Source: Bacilli bacterium
GTDB taxonomy: Bacteria; Bacillota_I; Bacilli_A; RFN20; CAG-826
Length of the DNA: 64,000 nt
Direction of reading: 5' to 3'
NCBI GenBank assembly: GCA_045628045.1
Contig: JAZQOV010000003.1
Span: 85,773 to 149,772 of the forward strand
Below are positions 7,338 to 59,093 of the stretch, piece after piece. Every line of letters begins with the position of its first letter. Within the stretch, counting starts at the first letter, position 1. The position numbers and the translations under genes are program-made. Below the pieces are notes generated by a model that saw only the letters and a list, made by a program, of their open reading frames with translations, did no database searches and was not told the origin of the DNA.

Positions 7338-7545
7338 TTTAAATTTAACCTCGAAATTTACGTTATTTTATTTTATAGTATTTTATACTAAAAGTACAAT
7401 AGATTTGTAACCCTCATGCTCGTTATATCGTAAAAGAAATTAAACGTCAAAAATCTATAGAAAAATAGAATTTTCTTGGCCAAATTTCAGAGAAGACATC
7501 GAGTATATTTCTTCTCGTTACGACGGTTAACCATCAGTTCTTCCT

Positions 7546-7688
7546 GGAGGTTCGCTAGGTTCAAGCCTCTAAACCAAACAAAAAGACACCAAAAGGTGTC
7601 TGTTATTGTCTTGTCTTGCTGCAACAAAGTTAATATTTTTTATAACAAGTGCAACGAAGTTAATAGATTGAACGCGACGAAGTTAATA
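7546..7688. repeat. Module A copy 1: hairpin + terminator + TGTCTT + three 15-bp direct repeats
   Basis: TGTCTT at 7607/7612; GCAACAAAGTTAATA 7621, GCAACGAAGTTAATA 7651, GCGACGAAGTTAATA 7674; homologous to 10285-10425. Confidence 0.9.
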
Positions 7689-8195
7689 TATTCTTTCCAA
7701 TATTGGAGTAACTTCAATTATATTTTTACTTTTATCAAGATGGTTTTTGTCCAAAACTGTCTTTGGTCTAACGCAGTATTTAGCATCAATAAAACCAATA
7801 GTACATTCTCCATTAGTAGTTGCAATAGTACATGAGACTTTGCCTTTTTCAAATTTTTCTTGGAATAATAATTTTTGTTCAAATACTGAATCAAAATTAA
7901 CAAGATGTTTGAGCTTTTGCCTAACAAAACCTTTTATTTCTTTTGATGAATCACAATCAAAATCGTCTTCCGCAATAGACTCATTAACACATCTATCAAA
8001 AAACTCTTCAGCACTTAAATTAGTTTTTACACCAGTTAGATGTAGAAAATTAGTCTTATAAAATCTCAAAATATATTTGTCAGAAACAACAAAAAGATTT
8101 GAAGAAACAGTTATTTTTACATTTAATAATTTTGAATAACTTTTTGCTGCATCAACTAGTTGATTTCTTGTTCTTGTTTTAAATGAGATCTGCAT
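7683..8195 (-). CDS. PBECR4 domain protein (predicted BECR-fold RNase)
   Basis: FYKTNFLHLTGV, F...C, QKL and P-K-T-V-L motifs typical of PBECR4; likely start ATG 8195 (MQISFK) after the leader U-tract. Confidence 0.75.
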   Translation of the reverse strand: MQISFKTRTRNQLVDAAKSYSKLLNVKITVSSNLFVVSDKYILRFYKTNFLHLTGVKTNLSAEEFFDRCVNESIAEDDFDCDSSKEIKGFVRQKLKHLVNFDSVFEQKLLFQEKFEKGKVSCTIATTNGECTIGFIDAKYCVRPKTVLDKNHLDKSKNIIEVTPILERIY

Positions 8196-8202
8196 AAGTA
8201 AT

Positions 8203-8303
8203 AAAAAAAGCGTTTTAAGGTGCGCCACCACGACTTGGACAGGTTTAAGGTCTCTGGCCCGACGAATTGGGTGGTCTTTTTATGTCTCCCATCCCTCTTG
8301 ACA
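8203..8303 (-). ncRNA. Putative structured leader/antitoxin RNA with ~2.7 degenerate pseudoknot-like repeats
   Basis: GC-rich ~100 nt between the promoter and a U7 tract; repeated GAGAC, ACCUUAAA and CCAA(U/G)UCGU; last unit GGUG-GCG-CACC-UUAAAA-CGC can form an H-type pseudoknot. Confidence 0.6.
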
Positions 8304-8308
8304 CTTAG

Positions 8309-8337
8309 ATTATAACAAAGTAATAAAAAAGATGCAA
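8309..8337 (-). promoter_or_regulatory. Sigma-70/SigA promoter for the leader RNA and PBECR4 gene
   Basis: TTGCAT-17 nt-TATAAT with extended TG; -35 lies inside palindrome AGATGCAATTAAATGCATCT. Confidence 0.8.
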
Positions 8338-8359
8338 TTAAATGCATCTCAAATTTTCT

Positions 8360-8435
8360 TGTCTTATTGCAACGAAGTTAATATTTCAAATCTTCACTGC
8401 AACGAAGTTAATAGTCGCTAGCAACGAAGTTAACA
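8360..8435. repeat. Module A copy 2: TGTCTT + three 15-bp direct repeats
   Basis: TGTCTT at 8360; GCAACGAAGTTAA(T/C)A at 8369, 8399 and 8421; a degenerate single-site copy lies at 8525-8548. Confidence 0.9.
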
Positions 8436-8738
8436 TATGTTTTTCGCGCTTTTCGACACTAAAATGATAACTTTTATAATTTAATGTTTCAACAACCAAT
8501 TATCATAATTTCATTGTATTAATATGTCTTGTTGTAACAAAATTAACACAATCAATTTAAATTTTTAAAAAAATAAAACTGTTATGATTACTTGTCTCAT
8601 CTTTATCGCAATAATGATTTTTTAACCAAAACGAACGGACATGATAACTTTATCTGAACAACAATCTTATATCACAGATTTTCAATAAAAAAGCAGGACT
8701 ATAAGTCCTGCTAAATACATCAAACATCTATTGTGATA

Positions 8739-9983
8739 TTAAACACCATTATCAACGTTTGATATGCATGGATTAAGCAGCCTCTTGTAGCTCAAATTCA
8801 TAACAAGAGAACTTAATGGCGCAGTTATTAAAATAGATAAAGCAGAAACAGAAAGCACTATAATACCTGCAGCAATAACAGCTTCTGCTCTAGAATTACC
8901 ATTAGCAAGCATTTGATTTCCTAAATCTAATAGTCCACCACCAATCGAGGCTTGAACTGTGGCTTTTGGCAAATAAGAAATAGTGACAAAAGACCTCTCT
9001 TTAAAGTTTAAATCAGTTTTAATTAAGCATCCTTGAACCATTAGTGATCTTGCGGTTAATGAGATTGCTAAGATTACTAGAGCCGGCAAAATGTAAGTTG
9101 GAACGTATTCTAATCTAATTGAAGCTCCAACTAAGAAAAATAGGAACATCTCAGCAGGAATCCATACTTTAGAAGCTTTAGCACTTAATGCTGTAGCCTT
9201 TTCTTTTCTAAACATTCTAATTACGATACACATAGAGATTGTTGCAAGTAAAGATGAGAAGCCTACATAAGGACTAATTACTTCTTCTAAAGCTACAAAG
9301 CCTATACCTATAGCGATTATTAAGAGTAATTTCATTGAATCTCTCATGTGCACCTTTCCAAAAATAAGCTTTAATAAGAAGCCAAAACCTACACCAATTG
9401 CAACACCAATAACGATAGATAACAAAATGTTTACAAAAGCCATGGCGTTTACATTACCGCCAGCTTCAATACTTATAAAAGTCTGATAAAAGACAATCAT
9501 TACGATGTCATCAATGCTACTACCAGCTAAAACTAATTGAGGAATACCCTTCTTAGTTCCAACTTTTTCATCCATTAGTCTTGTCATCATTGGAATTACT
9601 ACTGCAGGAGACACTGCACCAAGTACTGAACCAAGTAAAAAGGACTCAACATATGTTAAATCAAAGAATAAAGGGGCAACTAAGCCTACAACAATCATTT
9701 CAACTACTGCAGGCATAAAAGACATCATAATAGCAGGCCTTCCTACTTTCTTTAAGTCTGCTATATCAAGCGATAAACCAGCTTTAACTAAAATAATAAT
9801 TAAAGCAATTTTCCTTAAGTAAGGTGAAATTGCAGCAAGATTAGGATCAAATGCTCCTATTGCATTAATCAAAATGCCTAATAAAAGGTAACCAATTAAT
9901 GCTGGAACCTTAATCTTATTAAGTAATAGGAAAATTATTGCTCCACCACCTAGAATGATTAATAAGTCTAGAAAGAATAACAT
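8739..9983 (-). CDS. Cation:proton antiporter (NhaP/NHA-like)
   Basis: LGAVSPAVVIP, GSSIDD and LPKATVQA motifs; about 12 TM; GGAGG RBS before ATG 9983. Confidence 0.9.
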   Translation of the reverse strand: MLFFLDLLIILGGGAIIFLLLNKIKVPALIGYLLLGILINAIGAFDPNLAAISPYLRKIALIIILVKAGLSLDIADLKKVGRPAIMMSFMPAVVEMIVVGLVAPLFFDLTYVESFLLGSVLGAVSPAVVIPMMTRLMDEKVGTKKGIPQLVLAGSSIDDIVMIVFYQTFISIEAGGNVNAMAFVNILLSIVIGVAIGVGFGFLLKLIFGKVHMRDSMKLLLIIAIGIGFVALEEVISPYVGFSSLLATISMCIVIRMFRKEKATALSAKASKVWIPAEMFLFFLVGASIRLEYVPTYILPALVILAISLTARSLMVQGCLIKTDLNFKERSFVTISYLPKATVQASIGGGLLDLGNQMLANGNSRAEAVIAAGIIVLSVSALSILITAPLSSLVMNLSYKRLLNPCISNVDNGV

Positions 9984-10029
9984 TTTGATACCTCCCAAAG
10001 TAAATAAAAACTGATGTATCTAAAACAAT

Positions 10030-10088
10030 GTCTAGATATCATCAGCATCAAATGCGGTTTGATTTAATCAGGGAGATATCATTCCCGA
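10030..10088 (-). ncRNA. Fluoride riboswitch (crcB motif) with overlapping terminator
   Basis: Minus strand GGGAAUGAUAUCUCCC...AAACCGC...GCUGAUGAUAUCUA fits the fluoride aptamer consensus; its 3' part pairs with UAGAUACAUCAG followed by a U-tract. Confidence 0.85.
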
Positions 10089-10284
10089 GATGTATGTATC
10101 ATAACAAATTTATTTTAAAAAACAAGAACTTGTCTCTCTTCCTGAACTTGTTTCTCTTCCTTGCCTATTGAAATTCAATAGCTTTACTTTTCAGAATTCC
10201 GTACAATAAAAGCCGGCTCATTAACTAGTGATTGCTTCTACTTTGTTACGAATCAATTGGGATTAGTTAATGAGTTTTTATTAT

Positions 10285-10425
10285 GGAAGGTCGCTAGTTC
10301 AGCCTCTAAGCCAAACAAAAAGGACACATAGTGTCCTGTTATTGTCTTGTCTTGCTGCAACAAAGTTGATAGTTTTTAAAGTCATCGCAACGAAATTGAT
10401 AGTTACAAAAGCAACAAAGTTGATA
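10285..10425. repeat. Module A copy 3
   Basis: Homologous to 7546-7688; TGTCTT at 10343/10348; GCAAC(A/G)AA(G/A)TTGATA at 10357, 10387 and 10411. Confidence 0.9.
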
Positions 10426-10509
10426 GTCATGTTTTTGTAACTTTTTATTTTATATATAAGATATTGAATTTTTACAATAAAATTCGTCTATCCTGCCCTC
10501 ATCAAAGGG

Positions 10510-10528
10510 TGCGGAGGTAGGATTTGAA
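10510..10528 (-). repeat. tRNA-fMet 3' fragment (att-like)
   Basis: TGCGGAGGTAGGATTTGAA is identical to 14457-14475 and 18/19 identical to tRNA 14656-14674. Confidence 0.85.
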
Positions 10529-10537
10529 TTTCTTCAT

Positions 10538-11197
10538 TTATACGGCTTTTGACTGGTACTTATACCAAATTAGGCCATCCAACTTCTTAACTGTTAAGTG
10601 AGGATACTCTGCTTTTAGAACATTAACTGCATCCTTCATTAAACTCTGGCATTCAGCATTTGAAATGTCATACCCAATAGCATCTCTTATACAATGGTGA
10701 ATATGAACGTCTGGTTTACATCTATCATCTGTGCCAGCCAGCATAAATAAATAATCAGCACCAGCATCGCCCATTCCTTTAACTGAATGAATAACAACCT
10801 CAAGCAACTCAGGATGCTTAAAGTTTTTAAAGTCATCCATGGTATTAATGCCTAAATCTAATAGATACTCTGCTAATTTATAAATAACAGCAGATTTTCT
10901 GTTATGCCCAATAACCTGCATGTTCTTTAAAATATTCTGAGCAAATTTTTCTGTGCCACCTGCTTCATCAATGTGGTTAATAAGTTGTTTTAAATCATCA
11001 CCTGTAGCATATTTATCACCATTCATGTATGTTTTTGCATATCTATCAACAATTGGAACAGTAACTGCAAAATATTTAGCCCTTAAAGAATAAACACAAT
11101 CAATTAAACAAACAGACATTGATGAATATCCATTCGCGTAGTGCTTTTGATTTAAATCAAAATTAGTTTTACAAAATTGAACAAATTCTTCAATCAT
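10538..11197 (-). CDS. HhH-GPD superfamily DNA glycosylase-like protein
   Basis: HhH-like VKGMGDAGADY followed by KPDVHI (catalytic-Asp-like position); LIDCVYS and LDGLIW motifs. Confidence 0.6.
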   Translation of the reverse strand: MIEEFVQFCKTNFDLNQKHYANGYSSMSVCLIDCVYSLRAKYFAVTVPIVDRYAKTYMNGDKYATGDDLKQLINHIDEAGGTEKFAQNILKNMQVIGHNRKSAVIYKLAEYLLDLGINTMDDFKNFKHPELLEVVIHSVKGMGDAGADYLFMLAGTDDRCKPDVHIHHCIRDAIGYDISNAECQSLMKDAVNVLKAEYPHLTVKKLDGLIWYKYQSKAV

Positions 11198-11201
11198 AGT
11201 A

Positions 11202-12290
11202 TTAATTTTTATAAAGTTTAAAATCTCCTATTTCCTTAGTTCTTGAGTTAATAGTTTTTAAAGAAATTTCAGATGCATCCATACCAACCCAAGTCCTTGA
11301 ACGTAATTTTGATGCCCACAATGTTGTTCCGCTACCGGCAAAGCAATCCATAACAATACTATTTTCAGAAGAAGATTCATCAATAATTCTGAGAATCATA
11401 TCAAGATTTTTTTCTGTTGGATATCTTGGATATTGAGGATCTTTAAATGTCCAGACATCTTGTATTTTTTTACCTTTATGTTCATCAGCATATTTTTTAA
11501 TTCTAGGGTTTCCTGTTTTTGACCATTCAATTAATCCTTTGGAATCCAATTCATCAAAAACTGCAGGATCGGTTCTCCAATGTCTACCTTCAGGAGGCAT
11601 CATACCGCGCCATTCCTTCCCTGTAACGCCATTCGTCTCTCCTGGAGCATGTAACGGTATAGTTGTATAGCGCCTTCCATTTTCATCAATTTTAGGAAAC
11701 AATTTCGCCAGCTCTTCATCGGAAGCTTTTTCCTTAATTTCATTCCATAATTGGTTTTTACCGTTTTTACAATAAAAGAAAATGACATCTTTTTCGTTTC
11801 CGTATGCTTTTCTATCAAAATTTTTTGGATTAGATTTAATTCTTGTAATATCATTTCGATAATTTTCTTCTCCAAAAATTTCATCCATTAATATTTTTAC
11901 ATAATGACCAATTTTGTAATCTATATGTAGATAAATGCTGCCTCTATCAGTTAAAAGCTCTCTTATAATGATTAATCGTTCTCTTAAGAATTCTAAAAAT
12001 TCACCTTTAGTCATTTCGTCAGAATATGCAACCTGTCCTTTTTTTGATCTGCTAATTGTGCTGCACCTTCCTTCTGATACAGCAAATGATTGATTTGTAT
12101 TAAAAGGTGGATCTATATATACCAAATCAATACAAGGGCCGCATGTATTTAATAGTTTAGAGAGTCCTTCAAAATTATCTCCAAATATAAAATTATTTTG
12201 GTTTAAATCTAAATCTTCAAACTTATCAAAATTTCTTGATTGTTTGAGAATTTCACTCTCACTTAATTTTTCATCGAATTTTAATTGCAT
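11202..12290 (-). CDS. Site-specific DNA methyltransferase (N6-A/N4-C, beta class)
   Basis: Motif IV YIDPPF precedes motif I DCFAGSGTT; YPTEK motif. Confidence 0.95.
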   Translation of the reverse strand: MQLKFDEKLSESEILKQSRNFDKFEDLDLNQNNFIFGDNFEGLSKLLNTCGPCIDLVYIDPPFNTNQSFAVSEGRCSTISRSKKGQVAYSDEMTKGEFLEFLRERLIIIRELLTDRGSIYLHIDYKIGHYVKILMDEIFGEENYRNDITRIKSNPKNFDRKAYGNEKDVIFFYCKNGKNQLWNEIKEKASDEELAKLFPKIDENGRRYTTIPLHAPGETNGVTGKEWRGMMPPEGRHWRTDPAVFDELDSKGLIEWSKTGNPRIKKYADEHKGKKIQDVWTFKDPQYPRYPTEKNLDMILRIIDESSSENSIVMDCFAGSGTTLWASKLRSRTWVGMDASEISLKTINSRTKEIGDFKLYKN

Positions 12291-12292
12291 AA

Positions 12293-13096
12293 TTATAACG
12301 AATATAAAAAGTCTCTTAATACTAAAGCAGAAACAATAATGTCATCAGGATTATTTTCTAGGTACTTATGCATTTTATTTTTGCCTTTTATATATAAAAC
12401 ACCGTCCATAATAGCTATTTTTACAACTTTAACATCCTTTGCTTTTCCGCCTTCTAAAATAGAGTGTGTGGTTGAAATAGCATCATCAAATTGAGCGTCT
12501 TGGTGACCACCAAAATCAGTTAAGAATTTAGCCTCACCAATTACATATGTATTGTTGAAACGAGCAATAAAGTCAAGTCCTTTATCTCTATTAAAACCAA
12601 AGTACTCCTTTGCAAAATTTTTCATTTCTGCATCGCTAATATTAAGAATCGCGTTTCCTTTGGATAATAAAAATTCCGGTACATTTTTATAGACTGGGGC
12701 TCCTAAACATCCTTTGTCTATCCAATTCTTAAACATTGGACCAATTTGTCTATTCGTTTCTTTTGGTTCTGTACAATTATCATAAATTTCATCAAGCCCC
12801 ATTTCGTAGAGCATTCCACTAATACGATCGATTGTATTAGGATTTCTTTCAATAGCTGTTCTATCTCTTTTCAAGTAAGCAATATAAGAATCCTTAATTG
12901 GGAAAATATCAAAATCGCACAAAGCTTTAATTAAATCTATATTATTTTTGTGTTCAAAATTATATTTAACAGTATTCCATTCTTTATCCCCAATTTCTCT
13001 CCTTGCATTAGCAGACATTGGGTATACTTTGTAAAGTAAATCTAAATAATTCTTTTGGTTCGCTAAATCAACACTTTGTTTTGTCCAGAAGTTCAT
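12293..13096 (-). CDS. Type II restriction endonuclease, Tsp45I-like
   Basis: KGLDF...IGEAKFLTDFGGHQDAQF PD-(D/E)xK core and YLDLLYKVYP N-terminus recalled from the Tsp45I family; adjacent MTase; GGAGG RBS before ATG 13096. Confidence 0.8.
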   Translation of the reverse strand: MNFWTKQSVDLANQKNYLDLLYKVYPMSANARREIGDKEWNTVKYNFEHKNNIDLIKALCDFDIFPIKDSYIAYLKRDRTAIERNPNTIDRISGMLYEMGLDEIYDNCTEPKETNRQIGPMFKNWIDKGCLGAPVYKNVPEFLLSKGNAILNISDAEMKNFAKEYFGFNRDKGLDFIARFNNTYVIGEAKFLTDFGGHQDAQFDDAISTTHSILEGGKAKDVKVVKIAIMDGVLYIKGKNKMHKYLENNPDDIIVSALVLRDFLYSL

Positions 13097-13198
13097 AAAA
13101 GCCTCCTTATTTATATATCTTTGTGCTAAATAAGTCACAAAGAAATAAAGTATGGCAATATTATACTCCTCGTTTATACTTTTTTAAATTATTTTGAC

Positions 13199-13753
13199 TT
13201 ATAACAATGACATATTAATAATTTCATCTATCGAAACTTTGAAAATAATAGAAAATTTATAAATTAGCTCGAGTGAAGGCAATCTATGACCTTCTGTGAT
13301 TGCTACTATAGTAGATCTGTCAACGCCGATCATACTAGCGAATTCCGTCTTGCTTGAATAGCTTTCTTTAATAAGAAGTTCAATCTCCTTACCCAAAAGA
13401 ATCGGATTGATTTGTTTATAAATTGTGTTGTTTTTATTAAAAAATATCATCAGCCACTTGTCGTATGCCGATGATATTGATTGATAATAGAATTTAGGTT
13501 CTTCTTCATCCTTATGATGCCATTCAAGATAATCTATAGCATCCTTTTCATATTGAGTGAGAAGATTATCGTATTCTTTATATAATAAAGTGTATTTAGT
13601 TTTTTCTATTTTATCTTCAAATGTATCTGGTTCACTTTGATTAAGAAATCTGTATCTTTTTGAATCAGATCTAAAGTCTCTAATGTATTCCTTAATAAAT
13701 TTCTTAAATCCGTTTTTACTTTTTGCAAACACATAAGCGCAACTTATCTTCAT
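13199..13753 (-). CDS. XRE-family HTH domain protein
   Basis: C-terminal SKTEFASMIGVDRSTIVAITEGHRLPSLE HTH. Confidence 0.8.
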   Translation of the reverse strand: MKISCAYVFAKSKNGFKKFIKEYIRDFRSDSKRYRFLNQSEPDTFEDKIEKTKYTLLYKEYDNLLTQYEKDAIDYLEWHHKDEEEPKFYYQSISSAYDKWLMIFFNKNNTIYKQINPILLGKEIELLIKESYSSKTEFASMIGVDRSTIVAITEGHRLPSLELIYKFSIIFKVSIDEIINMSLL

Positions 13754-14387
13754 AAATATCCATCACCCTATTAGATATATTCAATAAGTCTAGATACTCT
13801 GCAAGTAAAATATAAACTTTTCGCGGATATCTGATTTCTCTAATGCATTTTTCAAAGACATGATCACTATAGTGTTTCATCAATAAAGTGCCAATAACAG
13901 CTCTATAAGCGAGTTTATCACTTTCTGGCATCTCATCTCTTAAATAGATTAATTCCATCGCTTCCATGATGAATTGAATATCAATAAGATAAAAATCATT
14001 TTTCGTTTCGTATAATTGAATATTTAATTGTTCAATCAATTTATTTCCATCGGTATAACTCGTTATTATTTCAGCAAGTGATGGTTCATCATAAATAAGT
14101 TCGTGTTCATACAAAAGAGATCTACCACATTTTAGGCCTCTATAATTTTTTGTGTAAAATTCAATAACTCTATCCCTATCGCTTAAATCTGAATCGCCAA
14201 TTAAATAAATGCCTTTTGAAATTTTCCTTAATATGCCTTCTTTAGAAATTCTAGAAATATATTTTCTTAGATTATCAATGGAAATGTCAGGAAATACATG
14301 CGTTGATACATAGCTAAAATCTAAAACACCACCCAAGTGGTTTCTCAAGTAAAGTCTTATTTGTTCAGTATCTGTTAGTCTTGCCAT
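13716..14387 (-). CDS. DUF6088/AbiEi-like winged-helix protein
   Basis: LRKYISRISKEGILRKISKGIY wHTH; palindrome AGAGTGAATTTAATTCACTCT in the promoter; leaderless start 6 nt after TGTTAGAAT. Confidence 0.65.
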   Translation of the reverse strand: MARLTDTEQIRLYLRNHLGGVLDFSYVSTHVFPDISIDNLRKYISRISKEGILRKISKGIYLIGDSDLSDRDRVIEFYTKNYRGLKCGRSLLYEHELIYDEPSLAEIITSYTDGNKLIEQLNIQLYETKNDFYLIDIQFIMEAMELIYLRDEMPESDKLAYRAVIGTLLMKHYSDHVFEKCIREIRYPRKVYILLAEYLDLLNISNRVMDIYEDKLRLCVCKK

Positions 14388-14456
14388 ACTCATATTCTAA
14401 CATAAGAGTGAATTTAATTCACTCTTTTTTTGAAAAAGTTCACTTAACTCATAACC

Positions 14457-14475
14457 TGCGGAGGTAGGATTTGAA
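14457..14475 (-). repeat. tRNA-fMet 3' fragment (att-like)
   Basis: Identical to 10510-10528. Confidence 0.85.
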
Positions 14476-14651
14476 ACCTTTCCCACATCCTGCCGAGGTA
14501 ATTTTTAAGAATGAAGCAATTTTATCACAAATTTAAAAAACGAGACATTGTCCTGTTTTTGGCTATAAATAATTATGTAATATTATATACATAGTATATA
14601 AGCATGAAAAAAGACAACCTCACTGATGTAAGATCGTCTCGTTTTCTCGAA

Positions 14652-14729
14652 TGGTTGCGGAGGCAGGATTTGAACGCTGCGACCTCAAGGTTATGGGCCT
14701 TGCGAGCTACCAGGCTGCTCCACTCCGCG
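14652..14729 (-). tRNA. tRNA-fMet (CAT), atypical
   Basis: CGCGGAG...CTCCGCA-ACCA with C1:A72 mismatch; anticodon arm CAAGG-CCCATAA-CCTTG; extra C in the T-stem. Confidence 0.85.
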
Positions 14730-58800: not shown

Positions 58801-59093
58801 GCAATTAAATTATAAGTTTGGAAAATAAAACCAACAGAATGATTACGATAAGTATCCCAATCTCTATCTGTATATTTTTTAGTGGATTTTCCATTTATTT
58901 TTAGATCACCTTTTGTGTATCTATCAAGTCCACCGATGATGTTTAATGTTGTTGTTTTACCACAACCAGATGCACCTAAAATTGAAACGAATTCGTTCTT
59001 CCTAAAATTGACCGAAATTCCCTTCAAAGCATGAGTGACGTTATTACCATTCACATAGTCTTTTGCAATATTCTTTAGTTCGAGCATAATCAA
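55821..59093 (-). CDS. MacB-like fused ABC ATPase/permease
   Basis: GASGCGKT, LSGGQ, ADEPTGALD, large extracellular domain and ERIKEIGVIRSLG. Confidence 0.92.
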   Translation of the reverse strand: MIMLELKNIAKDYVNGNNVTHALKGISVNFRKNEFVSILGASGCGKTTTLNIIGGLDRYTKGDLKINGKSTKKYTDRDWDTYRNHSVGFIFQTYNLIAHQNILKNVELALTIAGVSKEERKARAMEALKKVGLEGMEKKKPNQLSGGQCQRVAIARALINNPEILLADEPTGALDSETSIQIMELLKDVAKDRLVIMVTHNPDLAYTYSTRIIKMSDGLLTDDSNPFDGVEKIEQIDVSSKGKKKKTSMSLFTSIGLSTSNLLSKLRRTILVTIAGSIGIIGVSAVLAVSRGVKDYIGVLQNDMLSNYPITIQEEAVDYTALMSGLDKNKVKEEFKFNPERPEVGVDSMINYLMNTYSDLTNVKTNKIDDDLIAYVRGLSKEDAPVIRENYGIDVTNNIFGKWNDSRSEKDQYITFNGITQRYVSELNTVKGFSTYSQFADLFRSSMHELPENLDYVSNQYDVIAGDKLEGFEQNDLVLVVGDDVTLTDVLFAQLGFFEHDEFINVARCALAEQELKKQEDYPSWSNEKVNEELSKIREANPYRRSFSMEDVLNSDFYYFPQNTIYSEEKQAVAENEISFDISISVIESGDLNRFVSLSFQSLFGFNLLYGNTIYKNDKNEYETKTIACINADILYKKDVTKKEELDGTWYAFDQQVLLDLFARGANFDDETLISELAPKLEFGFVLNSQDPTFQVLFSKLNSSLNPTEIHFISPIITEKSNPITGYSYSAVADDDWIKNPKAEGVDGEILKIKSIVQLQKDKHFGCLQTGLYYTKAFADKFRADSADGRVTKALCDFLKNPATYQTNYREAYVTYDYLDYSEDKIDGVLVHGGYAPSLNGGFDSAMNDLFSGITGVNYFEKNTSSLRCVSGLKTIPIYDENEEFIGAEFDDLPYGLTIYPESFEAKENITSYLDKWNEDVDLTIGDKVLARTDREEISYSDTIEIIVDIITSLINGITIALVAFTSLSLVVSCFMIAVITYISVVERIKEIGVIRSLGGRKRDVANLFVTETFLTGLFSGVFGIVITFIIELIVNPILEGIIHFSLMHLTIIAAAIMILVSVVLSVVSGLVPSQSAAHKDPVVALRSNE

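Follow-up and report, generated by a model that had tools for sequence, protein, structure and literature searches.

Phased repeat triads in a Bacilli genome as probable attachment arms of gene cassettes stacked behind a tRNA-Met gene

What are the three phased triads of a short direct repeat that punctuate this stretch of Bacilli DNA, and what might they move? Here "the window" denotes the whole 64,000-nt stretch of the source genome G000 (1.07 Mb, 96% complete); G-codes stand for genomes, L-codes for sequence records and X-codes for metagenome runs. An earlier note, made from the letters alone, had described the triads, and all nine copies are found where it placed them, on the plus strand and each within one mismatch of GCAACRAAGTTRATA; the TGTCTT opener that it reported is present at every triad, at 7612, 8360 and 10348. 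Triad 1 (7612-7688, plus strand) has its TG core at 7612-7613 and repeats at 7621, 7651 and 7674 (spacings 30 and 23); triad 2 (8360-8435, plus strand) has its core at 8360-8361 and repeats at 8369, 8399 and 8421 (30 and 22); triad 3 (10348-10425, plus strand) has its core at 10348-10349 and half-site repeats at 10357, 10387 and 10411 (30 and 24). Repeat matches with up to three mismatches number 31 in the window as compared to 14.0 ± 3.8 in shuffles, and triads (up to two mismatches) number four in G000 as compared to none in five of five simulated genomes. We propose, with a probability of roughly 80%, that the triads are attachment arms read by two phage-encoded large serine recombinases, whose action in G000 would be in trans.

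Read from the sequence, each triad is the far end of a cassette, and the stack begins exactly behind the CCA of a transfer RNA (tRNA) gene, tRNA-Met(CAT) (14652-14729, minus strand, ARAGORN), which anchors the array and whose terminal CA (14653-14652) is the probable crossover dinucleotide. Cassette A (10348-14651) is closed by triad 3, cassette B (8360-10347) by triad 2 and cassette C (7612-8359) by triad 1, all on the minus strand. The general plan of a unit, in the direction of the tRNA, is a flank with a terminator-like hairpin, one to five genes on the same strand as the tRNA, and between one and three repeats followed by ACA. All ends point one way: in both arrays of G000 and among 18 aligned ends none faces another, and a Tn7-style TGT...ACA pair is absent. 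An opposite-facing end suspected at 8641-8663 finds no support, there being no TG core at the right distance and the site being unconserved among the 18 aligned ends. The reported absence of a 5-bp target duplication is borne out, and cassette and prophage junctions alike show no target duplication; AGACA behind triads 1 and 3, considered as a 5-bp duplication, was ruled out, identical letters directly following the tRNA-Met CCA in G004. The left flank of ~60 bp said to be common to triads 1 and 3 is confirmed (80% across 147 nt, triad included) but is not part of the repeat unit: it is the displaced tRNA-Met trailer, which in G004 stands directly after the CCA (76% over 78 nt).

That the triads border mobile gene cassettes, as first suspected, is supported by cassettes that rejoin at exactly these limits elsewhere. 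L043 holds cassette C at 95% identity over 742 nt, with different neighbors. Further alleles come from assembled contigs of runs X1-X4 and X7 (5 of 20 listed runs; four studies), which may derive from related species and in which some joints are short. Homology to cassette C stops at 8361 in X1, X2 and X3, and begins at 7612 in X2 and X4. Past 8361, X1 has the 3' terminus of another tRNA, whose last bases match the other tRNA-Met; different arms are found there in X2 and X3, with TTGATAC or TTAATAC at a distance of 17-23 bases from the core. The trailer opening cassette B comes after cassette C in X2, an order opposite to that of the window. Alleles that lack the intervening cassettes, proposed earlier as something to look for, were seen in X4, where two contigs join 10349 to a tRNA-Met 3' end, and in X7, where the tRNA at 14652 is followed in one contig by the flank of triad 1 (7416-7555). 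Circle junctions were not found in the contigs of the five runs, and contigs cannot show their absence.

The same precision is seen in other records. One 350-bp leader is joined exactly after CA at the CCA of tRNA-Pro (L044), at the CCA of tRNA-Arg-TCG (L047) and at the ACA of a cassette (L045), and a feoB unit stands directly after tRNA-Pro in L045 and after tRNA-Trp in L040. Every junction, whether at a tRNA CCA or at an end ACA, has CA in common; the next base varies, and some junctions share CATT. The exception is one short X4 contig with TA in place of TG. These boundaries and junctions are read off directly, as are the target range and the gene content given below.

Such ends also occur on whole prophages that carry recombinases of their own. 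In G003 (contig C21), a 47-kb whole prophage with terminase, capsid and tail genes begins at the CCA of tRNA-Met, passes through two genes for large serine recombinases (544 and 571 aa) and ends in a triad, ACA and a terminator; the recombinase genes point toward the tRNA, combine PF00239 with PF07508 and have an intact catalytic serine motif. At the right end the prophage matches triad 2 with 92% identity over 79 nt; at the left, its arm can be aligned with the tRNA-Met arm of the window. G007 carries a recombinase pair 89% and 98% identical to that of G003, with the same arm, behind tRNA-Arg(TCT). In G236 (contig C2), a second whole prophage, located at tRNA-Thr, follows the same plan with a serine recombinase pair; its far end, after the holin gene, holds its own 19-nt repeat twice, at a distance of 42, followed by ACACA and a terminator. 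A second near-identical enzyme pair shares one 300-bp arm at tRNA-Met in G124 and tRNA-Trp in G289. That nearly the same enzymes occur at different tRNAs suggests that they recognize the conserved tRNA end itself; if true, this would be a gene-preserving integrase system that needs no landing pad. Since the two whole prophages supply the phage and bacterial attachment sites (attP and attB) as well as the enzymes, the claim is directly testable. An identical 6.9-kb defense-like cargo lies at the right end of the G003 prophage (L034 5451-12323) and in a stand-alone cassette behind tRNA-Pro (L044 4481-11330), which suggests exchange between phage ends and cassettes.

Serine recombinases of this family have seldom been associated with tRNA genes. 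Matches to a profile of the tRNA-proximal enzyme occur in 56 of 351 genomes of the order at E <= 1e-90; the loci examined for its clade were 30 among the matches listed, plus others from further searches and minus the truncated L370, and the tree (FastTree, 73 rows, first 380 residues) carries no clade test. Within a 19-row clade of this enzyme (support 99), 17 rows face a tRNA 3' end 180-804 bases away and the other two lie at contig edges. The targets of the clade span eight tRNA types (Met, Arg-TCT, His, Thr-GGT, Thr-CGT, Leu-CAA, Leu-TAG and Trp; two labels come from partial tRNAs), and the 19 other rows of the order all lack a facing tRNA within the 0.8-2.9 kb available. Distant pairs that face tRNA or transfer-messenger RNA (tmRNA) ends, at 25 of 271 loci (223 with enough flank), are scattered in the tree; 21 of these 25 are distinct and one or two are doubtful. 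In G000, 96% complete, neither a PF07508 match nor a large serine recombinase was found, and mobilization there would therefore be in trans. A single-protein scan of viral contigs returned no relative, the far ends of five viral records (fragments or truncated) were uninformative, and the far end was not identified for the elements of G130, G053 and G289.

The anatomy of the site fits such enzymes. In serine integrases, attP is pseudo-palindromic, with 25-bp half-sites and an outer motif at 16-24 (PMC3783163). Reading outward from CA, the first repeat and the opposite arm share 11 of 14 positions in the G003 prophage and 10 in that of G236, as compared to 3-7 when shifted. RATA stands at 19-22 in 12 of 17 clade arms versus 2 of 44 G000 tRNA trailers, and TTGATA (at most one mismatch) at 17-22 in 8 of 21 distant arms versus 1 of 44 G000 trailers; the tRNA T-loop has TTGAAC or TCGAAC at 17-22, the same distance as TTRATA in the arms. 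Both the mirrored positions and the distance of the motif fit the 25-bp half-site described in PMC3783163.

In the mechanism that we infer, from the enzyme and the circle to the register of binding, a circle with the junction repeats-AGA[CA]-arm would recombine with a tRNA end ...AC[CA]-trailer at a 2-bp CA overlap. The tRNA would be kept whole without duplication, its former follower would be pushed behind the new ACA, and repeated insertion would produce a stack in one direction. The half-site of the recombinase would be supplied by the first repeat (9-22 bp from the core) and extra binding sites by the other two, and the T-loop would mimic the outer motif of the half-site at the same distance (17-22), which would account for the use of many tRNAs. 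The triads are likely protein-binding sites of a recombination system, much as the earlier note had suggested. If true, small-genome gut bacteria could swap restriction, toxin-antitoxin-like and stress genes cassette by cassette.

Several points weigh against action by the serine recombinase pair. With PF07508 absent from G000 the link to the enzyme is drawn through relatives, only one whole autonomous element (G003) has this exact triad, and the G003 and G236 prophages also encode an Xer-size tyrosine recombinase (PF00589, ~315 aa and 317 aa in G003, early region). Among aligned ends the number of repeats ranges from 1 to 3, so the full triad may not be required. The mirror is only modestly element-specific, with 8 and 8 of 14 agreeing when the prophages are crossed as compared to the cognate 11 and 10. 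The tRNA motif is unshifted, unlike attB in the A118-family model, the motif of which lies 5 bp further inward than in attP (PMC3783163). Flanks that follow an end show the half-site motif in 6 of 21 cases overall and 0 of 4 in the window; the arms opening cassettes B and C and the flank beyond triad 1 are without it, which a plain attP x attB model does not predict. One X2 contig (record 12) has the antiporter of cassette B without triad 2 behind it, and cassette B may be a rarely moving, captured host flank. Although host-type trailers open cassettes B and C, the latter moves at exact limits; either the half right of the core may be dispensable, with the extra repeats compensating for it, or units may travel with their neighbors, a behavior known from cis-mobilizable elements (PMC5704250).

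A possible, if doubtful, extension is that the pair reads only the halves left of the core, one enzyme binding the T-arm and acceptor end of almost any tRNA gene and the other the phased triad, with the sequence right of CA left free; any host DNA between a tRNA trailer and a triad would then become a movable cassette. Were this true, the system would be an integron-like gene-capture platform for which every tRNA gene is a harmless landing site.

Tyrosine integrases are the usual tRNA-targeting enzymes (PMC4383910), and PF00589 genes occur in the G003 and G236 prophages, in the G130 island and three times in G000; together with tRNA-like fragments at 14458 and 10512, this speaks for triads that are arm-type sites of a tyrosine recombinase, either the ~315-aa prophage enzyme or a host Xer-like one, with the crossover at the tRNA end. 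We consider this improbable. Tyrosine recombinases have an overlap of 6-8 bp, longer than the CA that alone is common to all junctions; the same kind of gene occurs in serine-recombinase elements that do not face tRNAs (L092, L093), and none of the three PF00589 genes of G000 adjoins either array, all being far away. The 14458 fragment belongs to the prophage arm, immediately past the stop codon of the serine recombinase, and an ordinary integrase islet between tRNA fragments at 10512-14480 was partly ruled out on the same ground. Both fragments are internal and without CCA, and the far ends consist of repeats, ACA and trailer, with no displaced 3' tRNA fragment of the Islander type. About equally improbable is that the ends are true attachment relics of decayed prophages or islands and that the small cassettes are immobile, having arisen by deletion and spread by homologous recombination between tRNA loci. 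The lack of a recombinase in G000, the host-type trailers that open cassettes in the window, the decayed end at 8525 and the antiporter without triad 2 would fit; by contrast, cassette C is 95% identical in other contexts, with exact limits at both CA cores and a different tRNA gene, cassette order differs between strains, and in G343 a DUF2442 operon with a triad forms a one-operon cassette between tRNA-Arg and tRNA-Ala.

The earlier note had pointed to Tn7-like transposons and their TnsB-binding sites. Tn7 ends have TGT and then a repeated site at 8 bp, which the triads resemble in register and sequence, and Tn7-like elements are known to target tRNA genes; ends of such transposons, steered to tRNA genes and left by repeated insertion, might look like this. 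The lead proved wrong, and we give it very little credence: a facing second end and a 5-bp duplication are both absent, junctions share CA at tRNA CCA ends, insertion is at distance zero from the CCA, and whole prophages that pair such ends with serine recombinases largely refute it. No transposase family was seen among the scanned proteins beside such ends, save one IS3-type rve gene in the feoB unit; PF09299 occurs in 0 of 1 (G000) and 1 of 5 carriers (on another contig) and TniQ (PF06527) in 0 of 5, both searches being without a positive control. A negligible chance is left to operators of a chromosomal regulator, the other possibility raised at the outset: the repeats are phased and direct, and a promoter-like hexamer pair is seen inside the triad 2 end, but every copy lies 3' of unrelated variable genes, before terminators and in two tRNA-linked arrays only, a position that refutes it.

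The proposed serine recombinase system works like the composite islands of the staphylococcal and Enterococcus cassette chromosomes (SCC, ECC) without belonging to them. Features of SCCmec, ACME and ECC (CcrA/CcrB) are taken from PMC6222049 and PMC7029739. Common to both are two tandem large serine recombinases adjoining the anchor gene, an insertion site in the 3' end of a conserved gene, which stays intact, attachment sites of ~50 bp with dyad symmetry, and composite islands with several attR sites and stacked modules without recombinase. Here, in contrast, the target is the CCA end of at least eight tRNA types rather than rlmH, the overlap is 2 bp rather than a 15-bp direct repeat, the enzymes are encoded by siphophage-like prophages, up to three half-site copies stand at the far end, and cassettes go down to 0.75 kb. 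No insertion at an rlmH 3' end with the TATCATAA core of SCC/ECC was found, the anchors being tRNA CCA ends. Scores of 91-140 bits with the CcrB model (cut-off 900) and of 42-140 bits with Ccr models overall (cut-offs 700-900) put the enzymes far below these cut-offs; given this and the different target, the system is not a member.

The nearest case at a tRNA gene (tDNA) is that of the Dehalococcoides ssrA genomic islands (DsiB/DsiA; PMC3146451), which share a serine recombinase at a tDNA target and tandem islands, 15 ssrA islands being without an integration module. Those islands have a single target gene (tmRNA), a crossover inferred in the T-loop and a 20-bp duplicated fragment, whereas here the crossover would be at the terminal CA, without duplication, at many tRNAs and with two full-length enzymes. 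Integrative and conjugative elements, integrative and mobilizable elements, cis-mobilizable elements and tycheposons (PMC5704250; bioRxiv 2020.12.28.424599) likewise accrete at tRNA 3' ends, newcomers pushing older elements off the tRNA and units without recombinase keeping their attachment ends; they mostly use tyrosine integrases (910 of 937 tycheposon-type elements), each of them specific to a single tRNA, and leave behind partial copies of it. The multi-targeting large serine recombinases of Durrant et al. (2022; PMC10083194) resemble the present enzymes in that closely related enzymes occupy different target genes with a 2-bp core, but that clade mostly has DUF4368, which is not found here. 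The main text of PMC10083194, with supplements outside the search, contains "tRNA" zero times, and the available parts of PMC10083194, PMC12884075 and PMC10484663 describe no such system. A description of paired serine recombinases at the CCA ends of many tRNAs was not found in the literature, most subscription papers being outside the search, as were supplements and the TIGER database, which possibly list such enzymes. It is well established that integrons without an integrase also form same-direction arrays of few-gene cassettes, with stop codons at or in the site and defense and stress cargo. Unlike them, the cassettes here probably have no attC hairpin or IntI, carry their own terminator and promoter region, and are anchored at a tRNA end; the ends in the window are direct repeats, and the autonomous partners have serine recombinases.

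The window array has a counterpart in the same genome: a second same-orientation array lies on contig C6 of G000 behind tRNA-Arg(TCT), with ends at 58923, 60732, 63337 and 65589 (looser search). All eight G000 ends lie at most 8 kb downstream of a same-strand tRNA gene, positions that make up 8.0% of strand positions; the eight form two clusters (tRNA-Met and tRNA-Arg(TCT)) and were counted as two events. Across the family, the end pattern with at most one mismatch occurs in 15 of 351 genomes at 24 places, 11 of them exact, as compared to 8 hits for the reversed control; loose searches of this kind include chance hits, several one-mismatch hits lying inside open reading frames (ORFs). An exact double-repeat scan returned 11 stretches from species genomes and one viral contig, the records being mostly titled Bacilli. 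Where the contig extends to an anchor, this proves to be a tRNA (Met, Arg-TCT, Arg-TCG, Pro-TGG or Trp); L037, L043 and L051 have no anchor within the available stretch. The Prevotellaceae-titled L042 and L046 were set aside, the TG core being absent; at ~9990-10045 they have two similar direct repeats in an intergenic element with inverted symmetry, likely unrelated. The same ends are seen in L050 and L051, titled Hallerella and Gastranaerophilaceae; the neighbors of L050 resemble Bacilli loci, and mis-binning is as likely as transfer. In L043 (10690-10780 and 11900-12060), a second end family with repeats of type AGTATCTAAC/TGC flanks the PBECR4 cassette.

Cassette A holds an AbiEi-like gene, a helix-turn-helix (HTH) gene, a Tsp45I-type restriction enzyme, a methyltransferase and a 219-aa ORF (10538-11197) that matches nothing in Pfam, NCBIfam or PADLOC. 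Its tRNA-proximal arm (14426-14651, minus strand) is a decayed copy of the prophage left arm, with a terminator-like hairpin and a tRNA-3'-like motif at ~14458-14498, and is 85% identical over 47 nt to the prophage arms of G003 and G007 (~225 nt alignable). The AbiEi-like gene is followed by the HTH gene at 13199-14393 with no evident AbiEii partner, and the two are possibly a broken toxin-antitoxin pair. Cassette B opens with a displaced tRNA-Met trailer (10274-10347, minus strand; terminator hairpin plus inverted tRNA remnant) and contains, as predicted between triads 2 and 3, a riboswitch and an antiporter: a fluoride riboswitch match (10026-10095; 33 bits, just below the 34-bit cut-off; E 1.4e-6) followed by a Na+/H+ exchanger gene (8739-9998; PF00999). 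At gathering score, Rfam has no match within the feature. A decayed fourth end (8525-8548, plus strand), in the same direction as the triads and with one repeat at three mismatches, may turn 8360-8524 into an empty unit of 165 bp.

Cassette C comprises a terminator, a conserved leader (~8205-8320) and the PBECR4 gene (7683-8231; PF18813), whose TAA stop codon does sit in the innermost repeat of triad 1. The leader is conserved between the window (8205-8320), L043 (10585-10700) and L032 (11985-12105); compensatory change was found in 0 of 18 pairs among these three sequences, and a structure is thus not supported. Parts of it reach high summed depth in X3, which suggests many copies. In L035 a two-repeat leader with similar words stands ahead of a 151-aa ORF, an arrangement that may resemble type III toxin-antitoxin loci. 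Cargo in related cassettes and elements includes Fic, AAA-DUF4143, DUF488/DuOB, an ABC exporter, feoB and methyltransferases, all functions here being annotations only.

Past the last cassette lies another displaced tRNA-Met trailer (7543-7611, minus strand), with a terminator hairpin at 7585-7600 and an inverted, decayed tRNA-Met 3' half at 7543-7576 (plus strand). The trailer is a long imperfect palindrome, the terminator hairpin being followed by an inverted decayed tRNA 3' half that ends in ACCA; in G028 (L097) and G004 (L112) the inverted copy apparently carries that genome's own tRNA variants. It may serve as an antisense element or a spare inverted target site, or have arisen as a template-switch scar. 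Motifs like a tRNA 3' end without CCA also lie inside element arms (14458-14498 and 10512-10532 in the window; ~180-235 in L053; the leader of L044, L045 and L047). In prophages they stand directly behind the recombinase stop codon and resemble Met, Arg-TCT or Trp ends, not always those of the occupied tRNA; they are possibly extra recombinase sites. ARAGORN found no tmRNA gene in the whole G000 genome. The anchor tRNA-Met itself has an extra base in the T-stem region, common to several relatives in the genus, and is listed by ARAGORN and not by Rfam at gathering score. Three Fic-domain genes of G000 lie within 292-22658 of the window.

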